Shown: positions 9,107-61,264, counted from the stretch's first letter. The stretch: 64,000 bases of DNA from Alphaproteobacteria bacterium (GCA_041557595.1 JBFFGE010000001.1:934-64933); one strand, 5' to 3'. Numbers and translations: made by a program. The notes: generated from the letters alone by a model not told the origin.

Positions 9107-9916
9107 TCAATCCCAGTTTAGCGGCTCCGTATCGAGGCGGACGGCGATTCCCTCAAGCTCCTTGGAGGGTGCCGGAAACCGCTGCATGACCAGCGGATCG
9201 TGGCCGGGAATCACGTATTTCGGCGAATCGGCGAGCCCATAGACCGTGCGGTAGGCCTCCAGCATATGGCCCACATTGAAGACGATCGGGAACGGATTGG
9301 TCCGCTCCATATTGGCGTAGAAATGCGATGCATCGGACGCCAGCACCATCCAGCCCAGCCGTGTCCACACCCGCACCACCTGCAGGCCGTCGGTATGGCC
9401 GCCGACATGATGGACGGTTACACCGGGCGCCAATTCGCGCGTGCCGTCGACGAAGTCGATCCGGTCGTCATAGAGGGCGCGCACCAGATCGGTCACATAC
9501 TCCACCGAGAACGACATGCGGATGACTTCCTCGCGCATGAAGCGCCCGGTGGCGAACGCCATCTCGCGATCCTGCACGTAGATCTTCGCCTTCGGAAACA
9601 GGTCGAGATTGCCGCAATGATCGTAATGCATGTGGGTCAGGATGACTTCTTCGACCGTGCTGGCATCCAGTCCCAGCATCTGCAAGCCTTCGGCCGGGGT
9701 CCGCAGGTGGTTGCGCTTGCGCTTCGCCGCCTCTTCCGCGTCGAAACCGAGATCGACCACGAAGCGCCGATCCTTGCCGACAATCGCCCAGACGAAATAG
9801 TCGAGCGGCATCGGCACGTCATGGGAATCGGAAAAGATGAAGGCTTCGGCCTTGGTGCCATCGCGCACCGCGTATTTGACGGCATAGATTTCATACGGCT
9901 CGAGCGCCCCGGTCAT
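9107..9916 (-). CDS. MBL-fold hydrolase, N-acyl-homoserine-lactonase-like family
   Basis: ORF trimmed to MTGALEPYEIYAVKY. HMHYDHCGN (HxHxDH) metal motif. Paralogous to 27248..28045. Confidence 0.8.
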   Translation of the reverse strand: MTGALEPYEIYAVKYAVRDGTKAEAFIFSDSHDVPMPLDYFVWAIVGKDRRFVVDLGFDAEEAAKRKRNHLRTPAEGLQMLGLDASTVEEVILTHMHYDHCGNLDLFPKAKIYVQDREMAFATGRFMREEVIRMSFSVEYVTDLVRALYDDRIDFVDGTRELAPGVTVHHVGGHTDGLQVVRVWTRLGWMVLASDASHFYANMERTNPFPIVFNVGHMLEAYRTVYGLADSPKYVIPGHDPLVMQRFPAPSKELEGIAVRLDTEPLNWD

Positions 9917-10019
9917 CCGCAAACTCCCTTTCGATTTGCAACGCCCGGTCTTGAGCGTTGCCGCGTGCCCGGACAGGATGCTACCCCGGAACGGACAAAC
10001 GGAAAACAGGAGGGCGGCG

Positions 10020-10901
10020 ATGCCGGATATCGAGACGATCGGATTCATTGGCCTGGGCGTGATGGGCGAGGCCATGTGCCGAAACCTGGTCAAGAAATGC
10101 GGCAAGCGGGTCGTCGGCTATGACGTGAAGCCGGGACCGCTCGCATCGCTGAAGGCGGACGGCGTCGAGGCCGCGGACTCGATCGCCGACCTGATGGGCC
10201 GCGCCGATCTGGTGTTGCTCTGTTTGCCGGGCGAGCCCGAGGTGGAGACAGTGATGTTCAACCCGGGCGGCGTTGTCGCCTACGCGCGCGCGGGCCAGAC
10301 CGTCGTCGACATGTCGACCGTCACGCCGAGCATGGGCCGCAAATGCGCCGAAGCGCTGGCGGCGGAATCCGTGGATTTCGCCGATGCGCCGGTCGCGCGG
10401 TCGCGCCTGGCCGCCCTCGACGGCACGCTCAGCATCATGGTCGGCGGCGCGAAAGAGGTGCTGGAGCGTATTCGCCCGGCGCTCGAGTGCATGGGCACCG
10501 ACATCACCCATTGCGGCGAGGTCGGCACCGGCCAAGTGATGAAGCTCATGAACAACATGGTCGTATTCGAGAACGTCAACGCCATCGCCGAAGCCTTCAC
10601 GATCGGCCGCCGCGCCGGCATCGACGGCACCCTGCTGCTGGAAACGCTCGCCAAGGGATCGGCGGACAGCTTCGTCTGCCGCAATCACGGGCTCAAATCC
10701 ATGGCGACCGACGAACACCCGGAAAATGCTTTCCCGGTCACCTACGCGATGAAGGATGTCTCGTACGCGCTCAAACTGGCCGAGGAAACCGGCGTCGACG
10801 CGAAAGGCGCGAAGCTGGCGATGGAACGGCTGAAAGAGGCCGACGCCGCCGGTTTCGGCACCCGCTACGGCACGGTGATCCAGCGGATTATCGACAAATA
10901 G
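10020..10901 (+). CDS. NAD(P)-dependent 3-hydroxyisobutyrate dehydrogenase-family oxidoreductase
   Basis: ORF trimmed to MPDIETIGFIGLGVMGEAM. Also ADAPVARS and GTGQVMKLMNN. Confidence 0.85.
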   Translation: MPDIETIGFIGLGVMGEAMCRNLVKKCGKRVVGYDVKPGPLASLKADGVEAADSIADLMGRADLVLLCLPGEPEVETVMFNPGGVVAYARAGQTVVDMSTVTPSMGRKCAEALAAESVDFADAPVARSRLAALDGTLSIMVGGAKEVLERIRPALECMGTDITHCGEVGTGQVMKLMNNMVVFENVNAIAEAFTIGRRAGIDGTLLLETLAKGSADSFVCRNHGLKSMATDEHPENAFPVTYAMKDVSYALKLAEETGVDAKGAKLAMERLKEADAAGFGTRYGTVIQRIIDK

Positions 10902-10918
10902 GGGGTGGTCGACCCGTA

Positions 10919-12706
10919 TTACCGCCCGACCGCATAGCCCTGCATGCCGCGCGGATTGGCGGCGGCCTTGAACAGGCCGTCTTCCTGCGAGGCCGCGCAG
11001 AGCCGCCCTTCCGACCAGTCGTCGCCGGCCTCGACGCGATGGCCGCGCCGTTCCAGCTCGGCAACGGCAGCGCTCTCGAACCGGCCCTCGACCACCAGCC
11101 GGCCCGGCGTCGCCCGGCGCGGATAGAAGGAGCTGGGAAAATGCTCGTTGTGGAAGGAGGGCGCGTCGATCGCTTCCTGAAGGTTGTAGCCATGCGCCGC
11201 GTGGCGGGCGAGGAAGACCGTCTGCCACTGGTCCTGCTGATCGCCACCCGGCGTGCCATAGGCCATGTAGGGCTTGCCGTCCTTCAGCGCCATCGAGGGC
11301 GACAGTGTACTGCGCGGCCGCTTGCCGGGCTCCAGGCTGGCGGGCACGCCTTCCTCCAGCCAATACATCTGCGCCCGTGAATTGAGGCAGAAGCCGAGAT
11401 TTGGAATGACCGGGGAGCTTTGCAGCCAGCCGCCGCTCGGCGTGGCCGAGACCATGTTGCCGTCGCGGTCGATCACATCGATATGGCAGGTATCGCCGGA
11501 CGCCGCCGACCGCGGCCCGACGGTCGGCTCGCCGATGCCTGCCAAATCGGACTTGGCCGACGGGTCGTCGCCGGTGAAGCGCGCATAGTCGATCTCCGCG
11601 CCGTAGCCCTCGATCCTGCCCGGCCGGAAGTCGAGCGAGGCGTCCTTGCCGATCAATTTGCGCCGCGCATCGTTGTAGGAATCCGACAGCAACGTCTCCA
11701 TCGGCACCTCGACGAAATCCGGATCGCCGTAAAAGGATTCCCGGTCGGCGAAGGCGAGCTTCGCGCATTCGGTCAGGGTATGCACGAATTCGGCGCCGTT
11801 CGGGTCCATGCCCGCCAGGTCGAACCCCTTCAACAGCGCCAATTGCTGGAGATGAACCGGCCCCTGCGACCACGGGCCGCCCTTGAGCACGGTGATGCCT
11901 TGAAAATCGTAAGACAGCGGCGTCTCGTAGCTGGCCCGCCAGCGCGCCATGTCGTCGCCGGTCAGAATGCCCGTATGGGGTTCGCCGGTAACGTCCATGG
12001 CGGCGGTGTCGCGGCAGAAGCGGTCCATCTCCTCGGCGACGAATCCCGCATAGAAACAATTGCGCGCCGCCTCGATCTGCGCTGCCCGGTCGCCGCTCGC
12101 GGCCTTCGCCTCGTCCAGGATGCGCCGCCACGTGCGCGCGATCCCCGCATTGCCCAGCAGCGTGCCGGGCTCCGGCAGATTGCCGCCGGGCAGGTAGACC
12201 GCCGCCGACGTCTTCCAATGGCCGCGAAAAATCTCCTCCACCGTCTCGATGGTCGCGCGCACCTGGGGCACGATCGGCGCGCCCTTCTCCGCATAGGCGA
12301 TGGCCGGCGCCCAGATTTCCTCCAGCGTCATCGTGCCGTGGTCGCGCAGCATCAGCATATAGGCGTCGAAGGCGCCCGGAACCACCGTGGCCAGCAGCCC
12401 GTTGCCCGGCACCATGTCGAGCCCGAGCCCGCGATAGTGGTCGATCGTCGCCGCCGCCGGCGCGACGCCCTGACCGCAGACAAGCTGCGATTGTCCGGTC
12501 GCCGCCACATGGATCAGCGCCGGCATGTCGCCGCCGGGACCGTTGAGGTGCGGTTCTGCCAGATGCAGCACGAAACCGGCGGCCACCGCCGCATCGAAGG
12601 CGTTGCCGCCCTTCTCCAGCATCGCCATGCCGGCCGCCGAGGCCAGCCAGTGGGTCGAGGACACGACACCGAAGGTGCCGAGCAGTTCCGGGCGGGTGGT
12701 AAACAT
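10919..12706 (-). CDS. ggt: gamma-glutamyltransferase-family protein
   Basis: About 595 aa with VVSSTHWLASAAGMAMLEKGGNAFDAAVAA and the GDTCHIDVIDRDGNMVSATPSGG nucleophile region. ATG 12706 preferred over the in-frame TTG at 12721. Confidence 0.9.
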   Translation of the reverse strand: MFTTRPELLGTFGVVSSTHWLASAAGMAMLEKGGNAFDAAVAAGFVLHLAEPHLNGPGGDMPALIHVAATGQSQLVCGQGVAPAAATIDHYRGLGLDMVPGNGLLATVVPGAFDAYMLMLRDHGTMTLEEIWAPAIAYAEKGAPIVPQVRATIETVEEIFRGHWKTSAAVYLPGGNLPEPGTLLGNAGIARTWRRILDEAKAASGDRAAQIEAARNCFYAGFVAEEMDRFCRDTAAMDVTGEPHTGILTGDDMARWRASYETPLSYDFQGITVLKGGPWSQGPVHLQQLALLKGFDLAGMDPNGAEFVHTLTECAKLAFADRESFYGDPDFVEVPMETLLSDSYNDARRKLIGKDASLDFRPGRIEGYGAEIDYARFTGDDPSAKSDLAGIGEPTVGPRSAASGDTCHIDVIDRDGNMVSATPSGGWLQSSPVIPNLGFCLNSRAQMYWLEEGVPASLEPGKRPRSTLSPSMALKDGKPYMAYGTPGGDQQDQWQTVFLARHAAHGYNLQEAIDAPSFHNEHFPSSFYPRRATPGRLVVEGRFESAAVAELERRGHRVEAGDDWSEGRLCAASQEDGLFKAAANPRGMQGYAVGR

Positions 12707-24944: not shown

Positions 24945-25820
24945 ATGGACGAGACGATGGAAGTCATTCCGACGGGCAGCGCCTTGGGCGCGGAAATCAG
25001 GGGCATCGATTTATCGCAGAACGTTTCAGACGTGGATCGCGAGTTCATCTTCAATGCCTATATCGAAAACCAAGTCCTCTTGTTTCGGGGTCAGTCGCTC
25101 AGCTTCGACGACCTGCTCCGGCTTCGTGAAGTGTTCGGCCCCGCCGGCCAGACCGCGAATCAGTTATTGGGACTTGGCCGGAAAGAGTACTACCCGGACG
25201 AGGTGCCGGACGACATCACCATCATTTCCAACATTATCGATGAAGACGGCACGCCACGCGGCAGCCTCGGCGACGGCGAAGCCTTCTGGCATACCGACAG
25301 TTCCTTCACCGAAGTGCCGATCTCGGCAAGCCTGCTGCATGCGATCGAGGTGACCGACCAGGGCGGCGAAACCGCCTTCCTCAATATGTACCGGGCCTAT
25401 GACGAAATGCCGGAGGACCTGGCCGCCGAAATCGAGGGGCGGTACGCCAACCATTCGAAGGTATTTCTCTCGAACGGCATGAAGCGTCCGGAATTCGAGG
25501 ATGCGACCGACCCGTCGAAATCTCCCGGCGTACGCCACCCGATGGTGCGGACCCATCCCGCGTCCGGCAAGAAATGCCTCTACCTCGGCCGCCGCCTTAA
25601 TTCGTACATTTTCGATCTCCCGGTCGAGGAAAGCGAAGAGTTGCTCGACCGGATTTGGGCGCATACCTGCCGCGACAAGTATGTCTGGGAGCACAAATGG
25701 GCGGTCGGCGACCTTCTGGTCTGGGACAATCGCTGCACAATGCATCACCGCAACGCTTTCCCGCCGGACGCCCGGCGGCTAATGCACAAGTCGATCACTG
25801 CGGGCGAGCCAGTCGTCTAG
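24945..25820 (+). CDS. TauD/TfdA-family Fe(II)/2-oxoglutarate dioxygenase (paralogue 1)
   Basis: GAEIRGIDLS, WHTDSSF (HxD), NRCTMHHRN. Confidence 0.85.
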   Translation: MDETMEVIPTGSALGAEIRGIDLSQNVSDVDREFIFNAYIENQVLLFRGQSLSFDDLLRLREVFGPAGQTANQLLGLGRKEYYPDEVPDDITIISNIIDEDGTPRGSLGDGEAFWHTDSSFTEVPISASLLHAIEVTDQGGETAFLNMYRAYDEMPEDLAAEIEGRYANHSKVFLSNGMKRPEFEDATDPSKSPGVRHPMVRTHPASGKKCLYLGRRLNSYIFDLPVEESEELLDRIWAHTCRDKYVWEHKWAVGDLLVWDNRCTMHHRNAFPPDARRLMHKSITAGEPVV

Positions 25821-32332: not shown

Positions 32333-33121
32333 TTAGCCGGGCCCGAGCCCGTAGGGTTTAGCCCAGCTCAGCCCTTCCAGCGTATTTTCCTTCGGCGCGT
32401 ATTCGCACCCGACCCAGCCGTCATAGCCGAGCGCGTCGATGACATCGAACATGAACGGCATGTTGACCTCGCCGAATTGCGGCTCGTGGCGGCCGGGCAG
32501 GCTGGAAAACTGAATATGGCGGATCAGGTCGAGATTGCGGCGCAATCCCTCGGCCAAGTTCCCTTCCATGATTTGCATGTGATAGAGGTCGTACTGCAAA
32601 TAGATATTGTCGCCGCCCACCGCCTCGATGATCCGCCTTGCATGCGCCGTATCGGTGTGCAAATAGCCGGGCGCATCCTGAAGGTTCAGCGGTTCGAGCA
32701 GCAGGGTCACGCCTTTACCCTTGGCGACCTCGCCCGCCACGCGAAGATTCTCGACGAAGACCTCCTCGCACGCCACCGCCGGCACGTCGTCCGGCACCAC
32801 GCCCGCCATCAAATGCATCATCGTCGCGCCCAGACCGTTCGCGTATTCCAGCGCCAGGTCGAGACTCTCGCGGAACTCCCCTTCCCGGCCCGGCAGGGCC
32901 GCCATGCCCTTTTCGCCCGCCTCGCTATCGCCCGGCGGCGAATTCAACAGCAATAACTCCAGCCCCGAATCGTCCAGCCACTGCCGCACCGACGCCAGGG
33001 GAAATTTATAGGGACGGAGAAATTCGACGGCGCGGAAACCCACATCGCGCGCGGCGGCGAACCGTTCGGGCGCCTCGAGTTCCGGAAACATTGTCGTCAG
33101 ATTGGCAGCAAATTTCGGCAT
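32333..33121 (-). CDS. hydroxypyruvate isomerase-family TIM-barrel protein
   Basis: ORF trimmed to MPKFAANLTTMFPE. Hyi-like N-terminus and overall length. Confidence 0.75.
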   Translation of the reverse strand: MPKFAANLTTMFPELEAPERFAAARDVGFRAVEFLRPYKFPLASVRQWLDDSGLELLLLNSPPGDSEAGEKGMAALPGREGEFRESLDLALEYANGLGATMMHLMAGVVPDDVPAVACEEVFVENLRVAGEVAKGKGVTLLLEPLNLQDAPGYLHTDTAHARRIIEAVGGDNIYLQYDLYHMQIMEGNLAEGLRRNLDLIRHIQFSSLPGRHEPQFGEVNMPFMFDVIDALGYDGWVGCEYAPKENTLEGLSWAKPYGLGPG

Positions 33122-33169: not shown

Positions 33170-33254
33170 GTCATTCCGGACGGCCCACCGCCGATCCGGA
33201 ACGCACCAACTTCTGTGTATTCCCGCTTTCGCGGGAATGACGCCGTTCTTGAAT
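33170..33254 (+). repeat. intergenic repeat family 3, copy 1
   Basis: GTCATTCCGGACGGC..CGCCGATCCGGAA...ATTCCCGCTTTCGCGGGAATGACGCC. The ends are mutually complementary. Confidence 0.8.
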
Positions 33255-33313: not shown

Positions 33314-34183
33314 CTAAGCCAGGCGCTCGCGCATCAAATCGCCCGCCTGGGACGGCGAATCCATCACTGCGACGCCCGCCGCCTCGAAGGCCGATTTCTT
33401 GGAGGCGTAAGTGCCCTTGTCGCCGACCACGATGGCGCCGGCATGCCCCATTTTCTTGCCTTCCGGCGAGGCCGCGCCGGCGATAAACGACACCATCGGC
33501 TTCTTCATGCCGGCGGCGTATTCGGCGGCTTCCTCTTCCATCGTGCCGCCGATCTCGCCAACGATGACGATGCCATCGGTCCCCTCATCGGCGTCGAGCT
33601 GCTGCAGCGCCGCCAGCGTCGTGGTGCCGATAATCGGGTCGCCTCCGATGCCGATAAAGGCCGATGTCCCCATCCCGGCTTCGACCACTTTCATGCAGAT
33701 GAAAGTCCCGAGGCTACCGCTGCGCGATATGACGCCGATCCGGCCCGGCCGCATTATGCGCTCGTTGAAGGCCGGCATGAAGCCGACGAAACTCTCACCG
33801 GTCGTCACCACGCCGGTGGTGTTGGGGCCGATAACCTGACAGCCCGCCTCGTCGGCCGCGGCCAAGAAATACATCACGTCCTGCACCGGAATGTGTTCGG
33901 TCAGGCAGACGATTTTCTTGACGCCGGCGTCGATCGCATCGAGCGCCGCCGCCTTGGCGCCGAGCGGCGGAATGAACATCACCGCCACCTCGAACCCCTT
34001 GTCGGCCATGGCGTCCTTGGCGGTGGCATAGACCGGCAGCCCGATATGCTCGGTGCCCGCCTTCCTCGGATTGACGCCGCCCATAATCTCGGTGCCGTAC
34101 TCCATCATCCGTTCCGACCAGAAAGTGCCCTGCTTGCCGGTCAGCCCCTGAACCAGGACCCGCTCTCCCTTGCGAACGATCAT
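33314..34183 (-). CDS. succinyl-CoA synthetase alpha-subunit-like (CoA-binding) protein
   Basis: VLVQGLTGKQG and GHAGAIV (phosphohistidine loop). ATGA overlap with the beta-like gene. Confidence 0.85.
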   Translation of the reverse strand: MIVRKGERVLVQGLTGKQGTFWSERMMEYGTEIMGGVNPRKAGTEHIGLPVYATAKDAMADKGFEVAVMFIPPLGAKAAALDAIDAGVKKIVCLTEHIPVQDVMYFLAAADEAGCQVIGPNTTGVVTTGESFVGFMPAFNERIMRPGRIGVISRSGSLGTFICMKVVEAGMGTSAFIGIGGDPIIGTTTLAALQQLDADEGTDGIVIVGEIGGTMEEEAAEYAAGMKKPMVSFIAGAASPEGKKMGHAGAIVVGDKGTYASKKSAFEAAGVAVMDSPSQAGDLMRERLA

Positions 34184-35304
34184 TTCGCCGCCTCCACCGC
34201 CGCGATCACGGCGTCATCCATCTTGTCATAAGGCTCCATGCCGAGCCGGTCCCGCACCAGGGCGACCGCCTCGTCCTCGCCGGTGCCATGGATCGAGAAA
34301 AATACCGGCAGGTCGGGTTTCAACTCCTCCCAGGCGGCGACGATTCCTTCCGCCATCACATCGGTGCGGGCAAACGCGCCGCAGAAATTGACCAGCAGGC
34401 TCTTGATCTTCGGGTTCGCCATGACGAGCTCGAGCGCCGGTTTGCCCAGCGTATACGCTTCGCCGCCGATCTCGAGAAAATTGGCCGGCGCGCCGCCGTA
34501 ATACCGCACCATATCCATCGTCGTCATGGTCAGCCCGGCGCCGTTGGCGAGGATGCCAACACTTCCGTCGAGATCGATATACTTGAGGCCCGATCTCGCC
34601 GCGCGCGCTTCAAGACCGGTAAGCTTCTCCGCAGCGGCCTTGCCGCGCAGCTCCGGTTGCCGAACCGCGCCCGAATCCTCCAGGGTGAATTTGCAGTCGA
34701 GCGCGATCAGATCGCCGCTTCCGGTCACCACAAGGGGATTGACCTCGACCAGTTCGCCATCGTTTTCCGCATATACCCTGTACAATTTGGCCAGGACGTC
34801 CGCCACCGGCGCGGCGCGGTCGCCCAATTCGAGCGGCGCCAGCATCGTCTCAAGCGCCGCGGCGGCCACACCCTTGCGAATATCGACAGCCAGCCGCACG
34901 ATCTTGTCAGGGTGGTCGGCCGCAACCTCCTCGATATCCATGCCGCCCTCGGTCGAGAACATGATGAGCGGCCCCTTGCTCGCCTGATCGGTCATCACGG
35001 CCGCGTAGTATTCCGCCGCGATATCCGCCTGCGCCTCCACCAGCACCTTTTCGACCGTATGGACGCCGATCGACATGCCGAGGATCTGGTGCGCCGCCGC
35101 CTCCGCCTCTTCCGGCGAATGCGCGAGCTTGATACCGCCGGCCTTGCCGCGCTTTCCGGTCGGCACCTGCGCCTTGACCACGCACGGGCCAATGCGGGCG
35201 GCCTGCGCCGCCGCGTCGGACGGGCTTGCCGCCAGCCCGCTGTCAGGGACAGCGATCCCTGCGGCGACAAGCAAAGGCTTCGCCGCGTATTCCTCGAAAT
35301 CCAT
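34180..35304 (-). CDS. succinyl-CoA synthetase beta-subunit-like (ATP-grasp) protein
   Basis: 374 aa with VVKAQVPTGKRGKAGGIKLA and GILANGAGLTMTTMD. Confidence 0.85.
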   Translation of the reverse strand: MDFEEYAAKPLLVAAGIAVPDSGLAASPSDAAAQAARIGPCVVKAQVPTGKRGKAGGIKLAHSPEEAEAAAHQILGMSIGVHTVEKVLVEAQADIAAEYYAAVMTDQASKGPLIMFSTEGGMDIEEVAADHPDKIVRLAVDIRKGVAAAALETMLAPLELGDRAAPVADVLAKLYRVYAENDGELVEVNPLVVTGSGDLIALDCKFTLEDSGAVRQPELRGKAAAEKLTGLEARAARSGLKYIDLDGSVGILANGAGLTMTTMDMVRYYGGAPANFLEIGGEAYTLGKPALELVMANPKIKSLLVNFCGAFARTDVMAEGIVAAWEELKPDLPVFFSIHGTGEDEAVALVRDRLGMEPYDKMDDAVIAAVEAAK

Positions 35305-35308
35305 GAAT

Positions 35309-36748
35309 TTACTTCCCGTAGCGTTCCCAGTGACCGCCGAACAGTTCCTGTTCGCTCGGCTTATCCTCGGGGATTTCCGTTACCAGATGGGTGATGTTTA
35401 TGAAATGGCGCCAGCTGAGGTTTTCCGAAATGGAGTTCCCGGCCCAGGTGCCGCATCCCATCGACAGGGTAAAGTCCAGCCCGTTCGTGAAAGAACCGCC
35501 ATTGCCGAATGTATGCGCCTGATTGACCAGCACGCGCACCACCTTCAGTTCCTCGGCGAGCGCGCGATAGTGATCCGCGTTCCTGGTATGGATGCCGACC
35601 GAGTGCCCGGCCCCCTGATAATCCAGGATCGCCTGCACATGGTCTTTGGCCGCGTCGAAATTCCTGGCCTTGTATATCGTCAGCGCCAGCGAGAGTTTCT
35701 CGCCCGAAAACGGGTGGTCGTCGCCGACTCCGCTATCCTCGACCATGAAGAATTTCGCCCCCTTCGCCGCCTCCGGCAGACCGCACAACTTGGCGAAGAC
35801 CGCGGGATCGCGGGCAATGATATGGCGGTTCAGATGGCCGTCCTGCCACAGCGCGTCCTGGATTTTCCGGCATTCCTCCGGCGTGGCACGATAGCCGCCG
35901 GCACGTTCCAGTGCCGCGATGGCGTCCTCGTAGACTTCCTCCACGATGGTGACCGAGTTTTCCGACGAGCACGACGTCGCGTTGTCGAAGATCTTGGACG
36001 CACAGATTTTCTGCGCCGCGTCGTCCAGATCCGCCGTCGAATCGATGATCACCGGCACATTTCCCGCGCCCACGCCGATCGCCGGCGTGCCGCTGGAATA
36101 GGCGGCCCGTACATTGTTCTGGCTGCCGGTCACGACAACGAGGTCGACCGCCTTCATCAGGGCCTGGGTCATTTCCTTCGATACGGGCTTCGGCAGCATC
36201 TGCACGAGATCCTCGGGCATGCCGATTTTCTTGAGTTCGGCCCGCATGTAGTCGACCGTCTTTTCGGTGGTGGCGTAGCCGGAAGGCGACGCCGCGATGA
36301 TCACCGCGTTCCCGCCTTTGACGGCCATCATCGCCTTATTGACGGGGGTCGCCGCCGGGTTGGTCGACGGCGTCACCGCGCCCACCACGCCGACCGGTTT
36401 CGCGTATTTGACGATGCCCTTGGCCTTGTCTTCCTCGATCACACCCACCGTCCGGGCGCGCATGAGGTCCCGCAAAGTGCCGAAAGTTTTCCGGGTGTTT
36501 TTCGTGACCTTATCATCGGCATTACCCAACCCGGTGTCGAGAACCGCCAGTTCGGCCAGTTCCCGGGCGCGTTCGGGCTTGTAGATCGACCACGCCAAGG
36601 CGGTGACCGCCTCGTCAATACGCGCCTGTCCGGCGTTCTCTATTTCCTGCATGGCCCGGCGCGCCTTCTGCACGACCGCATCGACGGCGGCGGCGGCCTG
36701 CGCGGGCTCGGGTTTCGCGGGTTTCGGATCGGCGAGCGCTTGCGACAT
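35309..36748 (-). CDS. CoA-acylating aldehyde dehydrogenase (EutE/PduP/acylating SSADH-like)
   Basis: VGAVTPSTNPAATP and the catalytic NATSCSSENS cysteine region. ATG 36748 has a GGAG upstream. The stop is 4 nt before the next gene. Confidence 0.8.
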   Translation of the reverse strand: MSQALADPKPAKPEPAQAAAAVDAVVQKARRAMQEIENAGQARIDEAVTALAWSIYKPERARELAELAVLDTGLGNADDKVTKNTRKTFGTLRDLMRARTVGVIEEDKAKGIVKYAKPVGVVGAVTPSTNPAATPVNKAMMAVKGGNAVIIAASPSGYATTEKTVDYMRAELKKIGMPEDLVQMLPKPVSKEMTQALMKAVDLVVVTGSQNNVRAAYSSGTPAIGVGAGNVPVIIDSTADLDDAAQKICASKIFDNATSCSSENSVTIVEEVYEDAIAALERAGGYRATPEECRKIQDALWQDGHLNRHIIARDPAVFAKLCGLPEAAKGAKFFMVEDSGVGDDHPFSGEKLSLALTIYKARNFDAAKDHVQAILDYQGAGHSVGIHTRNADHYRALAEELKVVRVLVNQAHTFGNGGSFTNGLDFTLSMGCGTWAGNSISENLSWRHFINITHLVTEIPEDKPSEQELFGGHWERYGK

Positions 36749-36809
36749 TCTCAACTCCAACTCGTGGCAGGGCCGCACCGGACGGCGCGACCGTTGACTA
36801 TTGCGATGG

Positions 36810-37706
36810 CTAGAAAGGGCGGGCGCCCTTGATTTGCGTGCGATGCATGATGCGCCGCGTGTTCTGGTCGAATGAATCCCGCCGATGCATGGCGCAGCGA
36901 TTGTCCCAAATCAACGCATCGCCGAGCCGCCATTGATGATGCCAGGTAAATTCCGGGCGGGTGGCATGTGCCCAGATTTCATCGAGCAGATCTTCCGACT
37001 CCTCGACGGGCAACCCCATGATATAGGCGTGCCGGCGGCGCCCCAGATAGAGCGCCTTGCGGCCGGATTCCGGATGGGTGCGAACGATCGGATGCACCGC
37101 GCCAGGGCAGCTGGCGACATCGGTTACCGGTTCGGCGCCGTGGCGCAGGAATCCGCCGCTATTCGTGCTGGCGTCGTGTTTTATCCTCATCCCTTCGATC
37201 CGCTTCAGCAGATTCTCGGGCAAATTCTCCAACGCCTGATACATGTTGCAGAAGCCCGTATCGCCCCCATGCGGCGGAATTTCCAGCGCGGACAACACGC
37301 TGCCGGTCGGCGGCTCGTCGATATAGTTCATATCCGTATGCCAAACCGCCTCGGCATTGCTCAGCGCCCCGATCGGCATGCCGTTTTCGATAACATTGGA
37401 GAGGATCAACACCTCCGGATAGCCCTCGACGCCGACCTGGCCGTTTTCGTTCGGCGGTGCGATGTCCAGATCGCCGAATCGCCGGCTGAACGCTACGAGT
37501 GCCGCATCGCTGAGATGCTGATCGCGGAACAGCAGGACACAATGGTCAAGCCATGCGCGGTGCACAAATTCGAAAGTAGAGGCATCGATCTTTGCGAGGT
37601 CGACGCCGCGAACCTCCGCACCGATCGCGGGGGACAGCGGGATAATTTCCGGTGCCGCCGGCCTTCCGGCTGCCGACCGATCCGCCGCCTCGGAATGTAG
37701 GTTCAT
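36810..37706 (-). CDS. TauD/TfdA-family Fe(II)/2-oxoglutarate dioxygenase (paralogue 2)
   Basis: GAEVRGVDLA, WHTDMNY (HxD), NRCAMHRRD. ATG 37706 preferred to the in-frame TTG at 37718. Confidence 0.85.
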   Translation of the reverse strand: MNLHSEAADRSAAGRPAAPEIIPLSPAIGAEVRGVDLAKIDASTFEFVHRAWLDHCVLLFRDQHLSDAALVAFSRRFGDLDIAPPNENGQVGVEGYPEVLILSNVIENGMPIGALSNAEAVWHTDMNYIDEPPTGSVLSALEIPPHGGDTGFCNMYQALENLPENLLKRIEGMRIKHDASTNSGGFLRHGAEPVTDVASCPGAVHPIVRTHPESGRKALYLGRRRHAYIMGLPVEESEDLLDEIWAHATRPEFTWHHQWRLGDALIWDNRCAMHRRDSFDQNTRRIMHRTQIKGARPF

Positions 37707-37795
37707 GCGCGCCCCCAAAAGGCAAAAATTCCATTTATCAACACATACCGTTCCATTTTATGCAAATTTTGTAAACCAAAACCAAGCCATTCGGG

Positions 37796-37829
37796 CAAGA
37801 AAAAGGGCCACGATCACCGACCGTGGCCC
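37796..37829 (-). terminator. rho-independent terminator downstream of groEL
   Basis: On the minus strand: GGGCCACG-gtcggtgat-CGTGGCCC followed by TTTTTCTT. Perfect 8-bp GC-rich stem. Confidence 0.75.
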
Positions 37830-42775: not shown

Positions 42776-43639
42776 TCAGGCGTTTGCGGCCACCGCCTCC
42801 GGATAGGAAATCGTGGTGCGCTGCATCACCCGGCGGTAGCGCGTGCCGTCATAGGGCGTGGCCCGGTGCAGCACCGACCGGTTGTCCCAGACCACGATAT
42901 CGCCTTCGCGCCAATCGTGGCGGTATTGGTGCTCGGGCCGGGCCGCCCTTTCGAGCAGATCGTCCAGCAGCGCCGTACTCTTTTTCTGGGACCAGCCGAC
43001 GATGCGCGCCGCATGCGCACCGATTAGCAGGGATTTCTGGCCGGTCACGGGATTGACCTGCACCAGCGGGTGGCGCACCGGCGGCGTTTCCGCGGCCTCC
43101 TTTTCGGTGAACTCGAATCCCACGCGCCGCCGCGAATAGATCAAATCGTGCTCGACGGTCAGCCCTTCGAGTTCACGCTGCATCGCTTCCGGCAGGCTCT
43201 CCCAGGCGGCCCGCGTCGAGGCGAATTCGGTGGCGCCCCCTTCCGGCGGCACCTCGCGGGCGGTCAGGATGGAACACAGCGACGGAATCGCCTTGAACGT
43301 GCTATCCGCATGCCACTGCATGTTGCCCTTCTGGTAATCCATGCGCCGATCGTCCGGCGGGATCACCGCGCCGGTCTTGATGTCCACATTGGATTGCCGC
43401 GCGAAGGGCGTGCCGCCGGCGGGATTGGCGCCGATCGTCCGTTCCAGCGGACCGAAGCGTTCGCTGAAGGCGATTTGCCGCTCGTCGGTCATCGGCTGAT
43501 CGGGCAGGACCAGCACGGAATGCGTTTCGAACGCAGCTCTGATTTGCGCAAATTCAGCGTCACTTACGCCTTCCGCCAGATTAAACCCGGTCAATCGGGC
43601 GGCGAAGACCGGGGTCAGCGGCGTAACCTGCAAAGACAT
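42776..43639 (-). CDS. TauD/TfdA-family Fe(II)/2-oxoglutarate dioxygenase (paralogue 3)
   Basis: ORF trimmed to MSLQVTPL. WHADSTF (HxD), NRSVLHRAT. Confidence 0.85.
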   Translation of the reverse strand: MSLQVTPLTPVFAARLTGFNLAEGVSDAEFAQIRAAFETHSVLVLPDQPMTDERQIAFSERFGPLERTIGANPAGGTPFARQSNVDIKTGAVIPPDDRRMDYQKGNMQWHADSTFKAIPSLCSILTAREVPPEGGATEFASTRAAWESLPEAMQRELEGLTVEHDLIYSRRRVGFEFTEKEAAETPPVRHPLVQVNPVTGQKSLLIGAHAARIVGWSQKKSTALLDDLLERAARPEHQYRHDWREGDIVVWDNRSVLHRATPYDGTRYRRVMQRTTISYPEAVAANA

Positions 43640-46596: not shown

Positions 46597-47501
46597 CGAC
46601 ACCCTCGCAACAGGCACGGCCGGTATGGCGCTCGCTGATGTTCGTTCCCGTGAATGTGGAACGCTTCGTCGCCAAGGCGCATACCCGCGGCGCCGACGCC
46701 GTCCAGCTCGACCTGGAAGACAGCGTGCCGCTGGCCGACAAGGCGACCGCGCGGAACATGGTGCAGGACGCCGCCAAGACCGTGTCGCAGGCCGGCGCCG
46801 ACGTGGTGGTGCGCATCAACCAGCCGCTGCGTCTGGCCATCCCGGACCTGGAAGCCTCGGTCTCGCCGCTGGTGCAGGCGATCACGCTGCCGAAAGTGGA
46901 CAGCGCCAGCCATATCCGCCTGCTCGCCGAAATGGTTGACGAGCTGGAGGCGGAGCGCGGCATGACGCCGGGCCATACCCTGTTCATCGCCCTGGTGGAA
47001 ACGGCGGACGCATTTTTCCGGCTGGAGGAGATCGGCAAATCGCATCCGCGCCTGGTCGCCATGGGGTTGGGCGGCGAGGATTTCGCCACCGCGCTCGGCA
47101 TGGAGCCGGAGCCGGACGCCATGCAATACCCGAAACAGCAAACCATCATTGCCGCGCGCGCGGCCGGCATCATCCCGCTCGGCATTATCGGAACGGTGGC
47201 CGACTATTCCGACACCGAGAAGATGCGCGCGATCATCCGCAAGTCGCGGCGCTTCGGGTTCGAGGGGTCGTCCTGCATCCATCCCAGCATCGTGCCGATC
47301 CTGAACGAGGAGTTCCGGCCCAGCGAAAAGGAGGTCTCCGGCGCGCAGCGGATCATCCAGGCGTTCGACGCCGCCATCGCCGACGGCCGCGCCTCGCTGG
47401 AAGTGGACGGCAAGATGATCGACTACCCGATCGTCTACCGCGCGCAACGGGTCCTTGAACTCGATACGGCGATCCGCCAGCGTGAGGCGCGGAACCGGTG
47501 A
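46593..47501 (+). CDS. HpcH/HpaI aldolase / citrate-lyase beta-subunit-like (CitE-like acyl-CoA lyase), copy 1
   Basis: WRSLMFVPVNVERFVAKAH, DAVQLDLEDSV, GGEDF. ATGA overlap with the CoA-transferase gene. Confidence 0.85.
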   Translation: MTTPSQQARPVWRSLMFVPVNVERFVAKAHTRGADAVQLDLEDSVPLADKATARNMVQDAAKTVSQAGADVVVRINQPLRLAIPDLEASVSPLVQAITLPKVDSASHIRLLAEMVDELEAERGMTPGHTLFIALVETADAFFRLEEIGKSHPRLVAMGLGGEDFATALGMEPEPDAMQYPKQQTIIAARAAGIIPLGIIGTVADYSDTEKMRAIIRKSRRFGFEGSSCIHPSIVPILNEEFRPSEKEVSGAQRIIQAFDAAIADGRASLEVDGKMIDYPIVYRAQRVLELDTAIRQREARNR

Positions 47502-47520
47502 CGAACGGATCGTCTCGCCG

Positions 47521-48429
47521 ATGACCGCCCCGAGGACGGGACCCGTCTGGCGGTCGCTGCTCTACGTGCCGGTCAATGTCGAGCGGTATGTCGCCAAGGC
47601 ACATACCCGCGGCGCCGACGCGGTCATTCTGGATCTCGAGGACAGCGTGCCGCTGGCCGCCAAGCGCGAAGCGCGCGGGATGGTGCAGGAAGCGGCGGGG
47701 CGCGTCTCGCGCGACGGCGCGGATGTCGTGGTCCGGATCAACCGGCCTTTGCAGCATGCGGTGCCCGACATCGAAGCCTGCATCTCGACCGCCATCTCCA
47801 CCCTGTGGATTGCGAAGACCGCGAGCGCCAGCCATATCCGGCTGATCGCCGAATTGGTGGACGAGCTGGAAGCCGAGCGCGGCATCCCCTTGGGTCATAC
47901 GCGGCTGATCGCCCAGATCGAGACAGCGGACGCGTTCCACGCCATGCGCGAAACCGCGGCCGCCCACCACCGCATCGTCGCCATGGGGCTGGGCAGCGAG
48001 GATTTTGCATTGTCGCTCGGCATGGAGCCGCGGCCCGACGCCTTCCGGACGCCGAAGCAGGAAGCCCTGATCGCCGCGCGCGCCGCCAAGGTCACACCGT
48101 TGGGGCTGATCGGCTCGGTAGCGGATTTCTCGGACCTCACCGAAATGCGGCGAATTCTGGAGACGTCCCAACGCTTCGGCTTCGAAGGCGCGGCCTGCAT
48201 CCACCCCGCGGTCGTGCCGATCCTGAACGAGGTGTTCAGCCCGACCGAGCCCGAGGTCGCCGCCGCCAAGCGCATCGTCGACGCCTTCGAGGCCGCCGTC
48301 GCCGACGGCCGCGCCTCGCTGGAAGTGGACGGCAAGATGATCGACTACCCGGTCGTCGCCCGCGCCGAACAAGTGATCGCGCGCGACGAAGCGATCCGCC
48401 GGCGCGCCGCGCACACGGCCAAACTTTAA
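47521..48429 (+). CDS. CitE-like acyl-CoA lyase, copy 2 (tandem paralogue)
   Basis: WRSLLYVPVNVERYVAKAH, DAVILDLEDSV, GSEDF. Collinear with copy 1, including the shared C-terminus ADGRASLEVDGKMIDYP. Confidence 0.85.
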   Translation: MTAPRTGPVWRSLLYVPVNVERYVAKAHTRGADAVILDLEDSVPLAAKREARGMVQEAAGRVSRDGADVVVRINRPLQHAVPDIEACISTAISTLWIAKTASASHIRLIAELVDELEAERGIPLGHTRLIAQIETADAFHAMRETAAAHHRIVAMGLGSEDFALSLGMEPRPDAFRTPKQEALIAARAAKVTPLGLIGSVADFSDLTEMRRILETSQRFGFEGAACIHPAVVPILNEVFSPTEPEVAAAKRIVDAFEAAVADGRASLEVDGKMIDYPVVARAEQVIARDEAIRRRAAHTAKL

Positions 48430-49669: not shown

Positions 49670-50503
49670 CTAGAACGGCACCTCGCCTTCCAGAATGATG
49701 CGGTGCATGACGCGGCCCGCCGCATGATCGTAATCGTCATAGGCGAGATGGAGCACGGCGCGGTTGTCGCATAGCAGCACGTCGCCGACCCGCCATTTGT
49801 GGCGATAGGTCACCGCCGGCTTGATCGTCTTGTCCAGAATATCGTTCAAGAATTTCTGACTTTCCGCCCAATCCATATTACCGACCCGGTCGGTCTTGCC
49901 CGGATGGAAATACAGCGCCTTCTTTCCGCTATCCGGATGTGTCCGCACCAGCGGATGGATTTGCGGCGCGCCGAACTTCTTCCGGTCTTCCGCGCTGACA
50001 TAGTCATGGTCTTCGATCTTGTTGACCGTCTTCAGGGTCGCCAATTCATCCTGCTCCGCCTTCGGCAAGGCGGCATAGGCGGCCTGCATGTTGGCGAAGC
50101 CCGTGTCCCCACCGGATTTCGGCAGCGATACGGCATACAGCACGGTAGTCTTCGGCGGCCGCGCGTGATTGGTATGATCGGTGTGCCAAGCCCGCGAGCC
50201 GGTCGCCGCCTTGATCCCATCCGGTCCGGCGATGGTCTTGCGGCTGTCGAGCACGGCGATTTCCGGATGGTCGTCCATCAGCATGTCGGAGAGATGCTGC
50301 GGCATCGTATCGCCGAATAATCGGGCGGCGGCGAGGTACTGTTCCGGGTTCAGTTTCTGGTCCCGCACCACCATCACCAGATGATCCGCTTGGGCGCGCT
50401 TCATCGCGGCAAGGTCGTCCGGGTCGACCGGACGCGACAGGTCGACGCCGGTCACCTCGACGCCCAACGCATCCGACAACGGTTTAATCGATACTGTCAC
50501 CAT
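49670..50503 (-). CDS. TauD/TfdA-family Fe(II)/2-oxoglutarate dioxygenase (paralogue 4)
   Basis: GVEVTGVDLS, WHTDHTN (HxD), NRAVLHLA. GGAGG ribosome-binding site. Confidence 0.85.
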   Translation of the reverse strand: MVTVSIKPLSDALGVEVTGVDLSRPVDPDDLAAMKRAQADHLVMVVRDQKLNPEQYLAAARLFGDTMPQHLSDMLMDDHPEIAVLDSRKTIAGPDGIKAATGSRAWHTDHTNHARPPKTTVLYAVSLPKSGGDTGFANMQAAYAALPKAEQDELATLKTVNKIEDHDYVSAEDRKKFGAPQIHPLVRTHPDSGKKALYFHPGKTDRVGNMDWAESQKFLNDILDKTIKPAVTYRHKWRVGDVLLCDNRAVLHLAYDDYDHAAGRVMHRIILEGEVPF

Positions 50504-60235: not shown

Positions 60236-61264
60236 ATGACCGAGACCGACATCTATCGCCAGCCCATTACAGATTCCAGCGCATGGACGCGCGCGGAGAT
60301 CGAGGCGGATGACGATTGGATTCATGTTTTGACCGAAGCTGAAATCGGCGATCTCGACCGCGCCTTGCAGGGTGTGCGCGGCCGGGCCGGGAAATTGGCG
60401 GACATTACCCGTTCGGACTTCCCGCTGCCGGTGTTGGGGCCGCGACTTGCCGAACTCGAAGGCGACGTGCGGACCGGGCGCGGTTTCGCACTGCTGCGCG
60501 GTATCCCGGTAGAGCGCTATGACGACGACGACCTGTTCCTCATGAAATGGGGAATCGGCACCCATTTGGGCCGCGCGATTTCGCAGAATGTCTACGGCGA
60601 CATGTTGGGGCACGTCTTCGACCACGGCAATGAAGACCCGACGGCGACGCGAACGCGCGGTTATCAGACGAGCGCGTCGTTGGATTTTCACGTCGACCGG
60701 GCCGACATGACCTCTCTGTTGTGCCTGCGCCAGGGACGCGCGGGCGGGCTGAGCCGGATCGTCAGCTCAATGTCGGTGCACAACGCGATCCTGGCCCGGC
60801 ATCCTGAATTTTTGCCGCCGCTTTATGAAGGCCTGCCCTACATCGTTACCGAGGCCGCCGGCGAGATGAAGACCTGGAACGGTCCGGTGTTCGACGTTAC
60901 GGACGGCGTGTTGAGTTGCTCGTTCCGCCGCGGCACCATACAAAAAGCAATCGACTCGCCCAATGTAACTCTGACGCCCTCGAAGGCAGCGGCGCTGGCC
61001 TGTATCGACGAGGTCATGAACGACCCATCGCTGGTGTTCGATATGGAACTGCAGCCGGGCGACATTCAATTCGTGAACAACTACACGGTGCTGCACGGCC
61101 GGACCGCGTTCGAAGACGATGCGGACAAGCGCAAGCGACGCCACGTGGTACGGCTCTGGCTGAAATTCTTCACGCCGCGCCCGGCCAGCGACTACATTCG
61201 CGACCAGTACAAGGGCATCGAGAAGCAGCTGGACCAGAACCCGGCCGGCTTCCGCACGCAATAG
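60236..61264 (+). CDS. TauD/TfdA-family (clavaminate-synthase-like) Fe(II)/2OG dioxygenase (paralogue 5, divergent)
   Basis: 342 aa with LDFHVDRAD (HxD) and NYTVLHGRTAF. The N-terminal domain is longer than in paralogues 1-4. Confidence 0.8.
   Translation: MTETDIYRQPITDSSAWTRAEIEADDDWIHVLTEAEIGDLDRALQGVRGRAGKLADITRSDFPLPVLGPRLAELEGDVRTGRGFALLRGIPVERYDDDDLFLMKWGIGTHLGRAISQNVYGDMLGHVFDHGNEDPTATRTRGYQTSASLDFHVDRADMTSLLCLRQGRAGGLSRIVSSMSVHNAILARHPEFLPPLYEGLPYIVTEAAGEMKTWNGPVFDVTDGVLSCSFRRGTIQKAIDSPNVTLTPSKAAALACIDEVMNDPSLVFDMELQPGDIQFVNNYTVLHGRTAFEDDADKRKRRHVVRLWLKFFTPRPASDYIRDQYKGIEKQLDQNPAGFRTQ

Follow-up and report, generated by a model that had tools for sequence, protein, structure and literature searches.

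What does a four-gene operon headed by an Fe(II)/2-oxoglutarate dioxygenase accomplish, and do its four products act on the same compounds? We address this question for four consecutive minus-strand open reading frames in a 64,000-nt stretch of DNA from Alphaproteobacteria bacterium (GCA_041557595.1 JBFFGE010000001.1:934-64933; here called the window, with positions counted from its first letter), which belongs to a genome (G000) of 4.56 Mb that is 88% complete. In the direction of transcription, the genes encode a TauD/TfdA-family dioxygenase (36810..37706; 298 aa; PF02668), a predicted CoA-acylating sulfoacetaldehyde dehydrogenase, SauS (35309..36748; 479 aa; PF00171 and NF047625), a beta subunit resembling that of succinyl-CoA synthetase (SCS) (34180..35304; 374 aa; PF08442 and PF00549) and a SauD-like alpha subunit (33314..34183; 289 aa; PF02629 and PF00549). 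The coordinates agree with an earlier note on this DNA, in which gaps of 61 nt (tauD-sauS) and 4 nt (sauS-beta) and a 4-nt overlap (beta/alpha) were described; the overlap reads ATGA, and the family assignments made there for the four proteins are borne out by Pfam. We propose that the last three genes very probably constitute the described bacterial sulfoacetate-degradation module SauS-SauCD, and that the operon as a whole combines this catabolic module with a co-regulated dioxygenase that acts in a side branch on an anionic sulfonate, our best guess being the conversion of sulfoacetate to glyoxylate and sulfite; for this whole-operon reading, we estimate a probability of about 0.5. Altogether, the operon is a known pathway module with one recurrently linked, uncharacterised accessory enzyme.

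The dehydrogenase passes the curated SauS equivalog model NF047625 (803.5 bits, cut-off 600), with the next families scoring far under their cut-offs. It has the catalytic Cys block FDNATSCSSE at residue 254, its best matches in the PDB are acylating aldehyde dehydrogenases, of which an acylating succinate-semialdehyde dehydrogenase (8cei) is the closest solved structure, and it is 70-73% identical to homologues that are embedded in xsc clusters and pass the same SauS model. Judged from its sequence, the gene product is SauS, with a predicted activity on sulfoacetaldehyde. The chemistry that the earlier note had proposed for the core, i.e. interconversion of an aldehyde, its acyl-CoA, and the acid plus ATP, was right, and sulfoacetaldehyde had been among its candidate substrates.

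Both ligase subunits are 37-44% identical to SucC/SucD of Escherichia coli and to the genome's own pair (37-38% for beta against the genome's own SucC and E. coli SucC). The beta subunit scores 365 and 340 against SucC cut-offs of 370 and 376, and the alpha subunit 332 and 327 against SucD cut-offs of 336 and 353; each subunit misses one of its cut-offs narrowly. In beta, the NIFGGIVRC loop of SucC is replaced by NFCGAFART, and NFCGAFAR(T/C) is present in 64 of 72 homologues; alpha retains the phospho-His loop MGHAGA and has GPNTTG where SucD has GPNCPG. Replacements of the GGIV and GPNCPG loops of the same kind extend throughout the clade. The true sucCD lies elsewhere in the genome, on contig C23, with mdh and sucAB. 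Based on the missed cut-offs, the replaced loops and the sucCD genes on C23, we rejected an assignment of the pair as SucCD. Instead, an SCS-like alpha/beta pair that has the phospho-His and adjoins sauS is what is expected of SauCD, and the pair is, by predicted specificity, a SauCD-like ADP-forming sulfoacetate-CoA ligase. Such a three-gene core usually carries the wrong label, succinyl-CoA synthetase or acetate-CoA ligase; correctly identified, it is ordinary.

Among the 80 nearest sauS loci, which we surveyed for neighbours, the beta gene is directly downstream of sauS in 70 (it is not in 7, and 3 are cut off), and TTT transporter genes (24 loci), IclR, TauE and Xsc-cluster genes recur. 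Azospirillum brasilense Sp7 has iclR-iclR-pta-TTT-sauS-beta-alpha-three-subunit molybdoenzyme-xsc in one run, with no adjacent tauD. In the genome analysed here, xsc is on contig C177 (878.7 versus 676.4 bits), divergent from an IclR gene and a Pta-like gene, the latter scoring under its cut-offs. Among 61 relatives, which are kin and not independent, xsc is present in 26 of the 27 genomes with sauS versus 3 of the 34 without it. Because xsc is present here and in nearly all of these sauS genomes, the catabolic, ATP-consuming direction toward Xsc is likelier than the reverse; given that the enzymes are reversible, overflow in the opposite direction is also possible. The earlier note had held either direction to be compatible with these enzyme families, and both are indeed published (SauS/SauCD, PMC10413351; SqwD/SqwKL, as summarised in PMC12890257), but the context (xsc, the Pta-like gene and TTT) favours the catabolic one. 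By analogy with the Bilophila and Cupriavidus homologues, SauCD would convert sulfoacetate to sulfoacetyl-CoA at the expense of ATP (to ADP and Pi) via the phospho-His of its alpha subunit; SauS would reduce sulfoacetyl-CoA with NAD(P)H to sulfoacetaldehyde; and Xsc would cleave sulfoacetaldehyde to acetyl phosphate and sulfite. A TTT transporter unlinked to the operon is encoded on C120 (TctA 58% and TctC 39% identical to the sau-linked ones). This small contig of the same genome (L273:108-2105 and 9341-12619) carries a second GRR-type dioxygenase, an MLE gene and the TTT genes most similar to the sau-linked transporters.

The dioxygenase gene is most likely co-transcribed with the sau trio, as judged from the sequence around it. 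Upstream, the operon is bounded by the intrinsic terminator of groEL (minus strand, 37797..37829), which was recognised in a terminator scan as a hairpin plus U-tract (z −4.4), is conserved in relatives and had been placed there by the earlier note. Between this terminator and tauD lies a conserved 44-nt AT-rich element (minus strand, 37727..37770), identified by alignment and a position weight matrix scan and putatively a promoter or operator; this is its one strong site genome-wide, the next best reaching 16 bits. The element occupies the same place, after the groEL terminator and before tauD, in genus g10; in the sister genus g2, with tauD relocated, it precedes sauS. That an element serving sauS in g2 sits before tauD here supports a single four-gene transcript. 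In the 61-nt spacer between tauD and sauS, no stable structure is found (z −0.9), and it is the shared upstream element together with the lack of an internal terminator that argues for co-transcription of tauD with sauS. A sigma-70 scan gave no site ahead of tauD. When the upstream regions of sauS and tauD from different families were searched for a common palindrome of the IclR type, the search settled on AT-rich sequence; the site in the window was no better than 16% of control regions. Marine-sediment metatranscriptome contigs match short identical pieces inside each of the four genes, none of the matches listed spanning tauD-sauS; because such contigs give no strand, starts or single transcript, we did not use them as support.

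The dioxygenase has an intact iron triad (H123-D125-H274), R285 and R289, the 2-oxoglutarate-binding Thr and Arg, and the PF02668 domain, as is characteristic of the TauD/TfdA family. Its identity to both E. coli TauD and RdpA is about 35%, and it scores 198 bits against the 313-bit cut-off of the taurine dioxygenase equivalog. None of the six taurine-binding residues of TauD, which we take to be H70, Y73, N95, S158, F159 and F206, is kept, with N95 replaced by E119 and F206 by R225 (the alignment is uncertain in the 70-73 and 158-159 loops). We therefore rejected a canonical taurine dioxygenase on the basis of the missed cut-off and the replaced residues. E119, at the amine-binding position of TauD, is invariant among homologues, as are R223 and R224; R225, at the position of TauD F206 and RdpA Y221, is mostly conserved. 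The three arginines lie in an LGRRR motif, and the LGRR and HRRD motifs mark the uncharacterised subfamily of which the dioxygenase is, by sequence, a member. R223-R225 suggest a second anion site, and the pocket would fit a more anionic substrate, perhaps one that also bears an amine. The predicted model (pLDDT 88.6) has RdpA and TauD as its best folds; these match almost equally (34-38% identity), and the match is therefore uninformative about the substrate. A search of the ESM Atlas with the dioxygenase returned generic TauD clusters only.

The dioxygenase is non-essential to the sau module. TauD is present in only 4 of the 80 sauS loci; since most sau clusters lack it, the dioxygenase is not a feeder that the module requires. 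The link is nevertheless recurrent in a second order of Alphaproteobacteria, a lineage not among the 91 genomes of the window's order: 14 of 15 orthologue-bearing genomes, probably of one or two genera, have iclR-tauD-sauS, which continues into sauC-sauD where seen, while 14 other relatives in that order have sauS without the orthologue. The protein cluster of this second-order dioxygenase includes a cultured isolate, LMO-S08. That the orthologue stands ahead of sauS in this order too takes the tauD-sauS link beyond chance, making a functional connection possible. The IclR proteins encoded before tauD orthologues cluster with those encoded beside sauS (SH-aLRT 97, in a tree without an unrelated IclR outgroup), and the sau genes of Cupriavidus necator also have an IclR-type regulator, SauR. 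Partial forms of groEL-iclR-tauD-(MLE)-sauS-sauC-sauD across members of the window's family are consistent with an old locus that has since been trimmed. The linked SauS proteins fall into two separate clades in a tree with poor outgroup rows, but a topology that unites them is not rejected (p-AU 0.087); the data are compatible with either one or two origins of the link. Of 28 genomes of the family, the orthologue is encoded in 23 and sauS in 17, with both in 13; in the 10 that carry the orthologue without sauS (65-96% complete), xsc was not found either, and the persistence of the orthologue in them suits a stand-alone reaction.

According to the whole-operon reading, the dioxygenase is probably part of the same IclR-controlled sulfonate regulon and acts in a side branch rather than as a feeder. 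We speculate that it would hydroxylate sulfoacetate, or a close homologue, beside the sulfonate in an O2- and 2-oxoglutarate-dependent reaction, releasing glyoxylate (or the matching aldehyde) and sulfite. On a broader reading, the head gene would define a 2-oxoglutarate dioxygenase subfamily not described before, whose substrate is a carboxylated sulfonate handled by the sau regulon. Such an enzyme would either desulfonate sulfoacetate to glyoxylate and sulfite or liberate sulfoacetaldehyde or taurine from some larger sulfonate of marine origin, perhaps in concert with the MLE-type and B12 mutase-like genes that recur around these loci; we hold this tentatively, at somewhat short of an even chance. 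If true, it would represent a new aerobic entry into C2-sulfonate metabolism. The lead is that, out of about 100 paralogues, gene order and an IclR single out one dioxygenase as linked to the metabolism of sulfoacetate, and this in two alphaproteobacterial orders; should it act on a sulfonate, it would add a reaction to marine organosulfur cycling and offer a first handle on the TauD expansion of the family.

Several observations weigh against this reading. It would be redundant for an operon to provide two routes for the same substrate, and no glyoxylate carboligase scored above its cut-off in the 88%-complete genome. Within the window, neither a transporter nor xsc adjoins the operon, and the likening of the ligase to SauC/SauD is based on family, loops and gene order rather than on a direct comparison with the Bilophila sequences. 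The invariant E119 could point to an amine-bearing substrate, and the GRR motif is common to 14 of 89 paralogues in the genome. Finally, orthologue and sauS do not co-occur in the family beyond expectation (13 genomes observed versus 14 expected); of the 13 with both, 9 have them unlinked, 2 adjacent and 2 one gene apart.

The lack of co-occurrence also favours the alternative that survives best, although we consider it unlikely, namely a sau trio headed by a passenger dioxygenase that shares the promoter, is held in place by local synteny and acts on an unrelated substrate. The genome has 115 matches to the TauD Pfam model, and about 1% of its genes have a TauD gene directly upstream by chance; many members of the family have about 60-110 TauD candidates at a first look compared with <20 in most other families of the order, which looks like a very large lineage-level expansion (a literature search on TauD expansions in this group gave nothing relevant). 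Moreover, orthologues are located in the corresponding groEL...hyi-pepN region of the chromosome in genera that have no sauS at that place, and none of 10 more distant class-level homologues of the dioxygenase lies by sauS. A passenger does not readily explain, however, that in the second order iclR, this orthologue and sauS are closely linked, that a subfamily member adjoins sauS in two genomes whose strong TauD matches number just 9 and 3, or that orthologues also lie beside other sau-associated genes (a QOR-like reductase in L176, glmSLE-like genes in L264 and TTT in L274 and L275).

Less probable still is the route set out by the earlier note, in which the dioxygenase supplies the aldehyde. 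Canonical TauD removes the sulfonate to yield aminoacetaldehyde and sulfite, and since aminoacetaldehyde is not a SauS substrate, canonical chemistry cannot feed SauS; this and the scarcity of TauD in sauS loci speak against the proposal as it stood, while the recurring link to sauS is real. In a modified version, RdpA-style cleavage of an N-, O- or S-substituted 2-sulfoethyl compound (e.g., an N-carboxyalkyl-taurine such as tauropine) would give sulfoacetaldehyde directly or via taurine, and SauS/SauCD would work oxidatively to sulfoacetate and ATP, as SqwD/SqwKL do. The gene order fits, RdpA-type ether-cleaving enzymes are the best sequence and fold matches, the invariant residues of the pocket include acidic as well as basic ones, the subfamily is often accompanied by an MLE-subgroup epimerase-like gene, and PMC12890257 summarises the oxidative direction. 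However, RdpA and TauD score nearly equally, xsc is present and would consume the aldehyde, the published oxidative variant comes from anaerobic fermenters, and the dioxygenase persists in the 10 genomes described above in which neither sauS nor xsc was found, SafD not having been found in four of them that were tested or near-tested. A literature search for tauropine degradation gave nothing relevant.

It is improbable that, in a variant of the earlier note's idea, the operon handles a C3 compound, with the dioxygenase desulfonating 3-sulfopropanoate to malonate semialdehyde, which resembles sulfoacetaldehyde, SauS forming malonyl-CoA and SauCD releasing malonate and ATP. The basic pocket would suit a carboxylated sulfonate, and Bilophila SauCD is still active with 3-sulfopropanoate (20%) and malonate (7%; PMC10413351), but the close identity of the dehydrogenase to its homologues in xsc clusters, the SauS model that it passes as they do, and the absence of the dioxygenase from most sau clusters argue otherwise. 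Recycling of the succinate made by the very numerous 2-oxoglutarate dioxygenases, by a second succinyl-CoA synthetase and a succinate-semialdehyde dehydrogenase, is highly improbable despite the 8cei match, given the SucC/SucD cut-offs missed by both subunits, the loops replaced across the clade, the true sucCD on C23 and neighbours that are sulfonate genes.

The sau module with its side-branch dioxygenase can be compared with several known systems. SauS-SauCD-SauXYZ of Bilophila wadsworthia, in which SauCD prefers sulfoacetate over succinate, has been characterised (Liu et al. 2023, PMC10413351); it shares the acylating sulfoacetaldehyde dehydrogenase and the two-subunit ADP-forming SCS-like ligase, and TTT lies beside many homologous loci. 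In contrast, the operon described here is alphaproteobacterial, uses Xsc for C-S cleavage (no search was made for TauF/IseG), lacks an adjacent transporter and has a TauD-family head gene. The sauSTU genes of C. necator H16 (Weinitschke et al. 2010, as summarised in PMC10413351 and PMC12625764) share SauS and the route from sulfoacetate via sulfoacetyl-CoA and sulfoacetaldehyde to Xsc, but encode the AMP-forming SauT and the MFS transporter SauU, and these summaries describe no dioxygenase. SqwD/SqwKL of the sulfo-TK variant, which convert sulfoacetaldehyde to sulfoacetate and ATP (Chu et al. 2023, as summarised in PMC12890257), are enzymes of the same types running in the direction proposed by the earlier note; according to this summary, they occur in Spirochaetes, Firmicutes and Tenericutes and are fed by sulfoquinovose transketolase rather than a dioxygenase. 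We found no sulfoquinovose transketolase cluster at the locus, which is flanked by groEL and hyi, or among the recurring neighbours of the 80 loci (no genome-wide search was made). The same three-gene sauSCD was reported, from bioinformatics, in sponge symbionts and seawater (one symbiont metagenome-assembled genome and 3 of 99 other bins; PMC12625764); the symbiont clusters carry TTT, and no TauD link is mentioned in the parts of that report that concern them. E. coli TauD, RdpA and SqoD (PMC10507154) have the same fold, HxD...H iron triad and two C-terminal arginines as the dioxygenase, which differs in its low identity, its replaced taurine-binding residues, and its LGRR and HRRD motifs. 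Searches for SauS with a dioxygenase and for the four-gene combination gave no description in the library searched; the earlier note did not recognise the exact combination as a described pathway, but its three-gene core is described in both directions.

Further genes recur around these loci. An MLE-subgroup enolase-family gene, whose nearest structures are dipeptide epimerases, is repeatedly found beside GRR-type dioxygenases, sauS and sau-type TTT (L044:6612-7700, L231:6733-7941, L245:9064-10140, L273:108-1217, L274 and L275). At L231:7893-9353 (G013), sauS is followed by AtuA-like genes instead of sauC/sauD, and xsc was not found in that 95%-complete genome. Genes resembling those of the B12-dependent mutase glmS/glmL/glmE lie directly beside sauS or the dioxygenase in L293:5748-9143, L066, L067, L074, L085, L094, L111 and L264; the E subunit passes TIGR01503, and the substrate may be a sulfonated analogue. 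A GlmE-like mutase was not found in the 88%-complete source genome. A QOR-like MDR reductase gene follows sauD in six loci (L052, L072, L074, L086, L111 and L113), with a similar one after iclR-tauD in L176, and an sdhB/sdhC-like pair and TauE recur near sauD. Metagenomic homologues with about 55% identity (L195-L229) belong to a different conserved cluster, with an IlvD-like dehydratase and a thiamine diphosphate enzyme about 25% identical to Xsc.

Past the operon end lies the repeat reported by the earlier note, a REP-like palindrome (33219..33238, without strand) recognised as a hairpin, with 18 copies in the genome versus 0 for the reversed control and hence not specific to the operon. Beyond it, a gene for a Hyi/OtnI-family isomerase (minus strand, 32333..33121) scores exactly at the cut-off for 2-oxo-tetronate isomerase (NF043033, 325) and under that for hydroxypyruvate isomerase. 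It comes after sauD solely in genera g1 and g2; we consider it a syntenic neighbour, possibly on the same transcript, and not a core member. Within the window, TauD Pfam matches are at 24969-25787, 36837-37646, 42812-43630, 49697-50488 and 60404-61159, and a tandem gene duplication at 46620-48412 has a period of 922 nt and a DNA identity of 72-81%.

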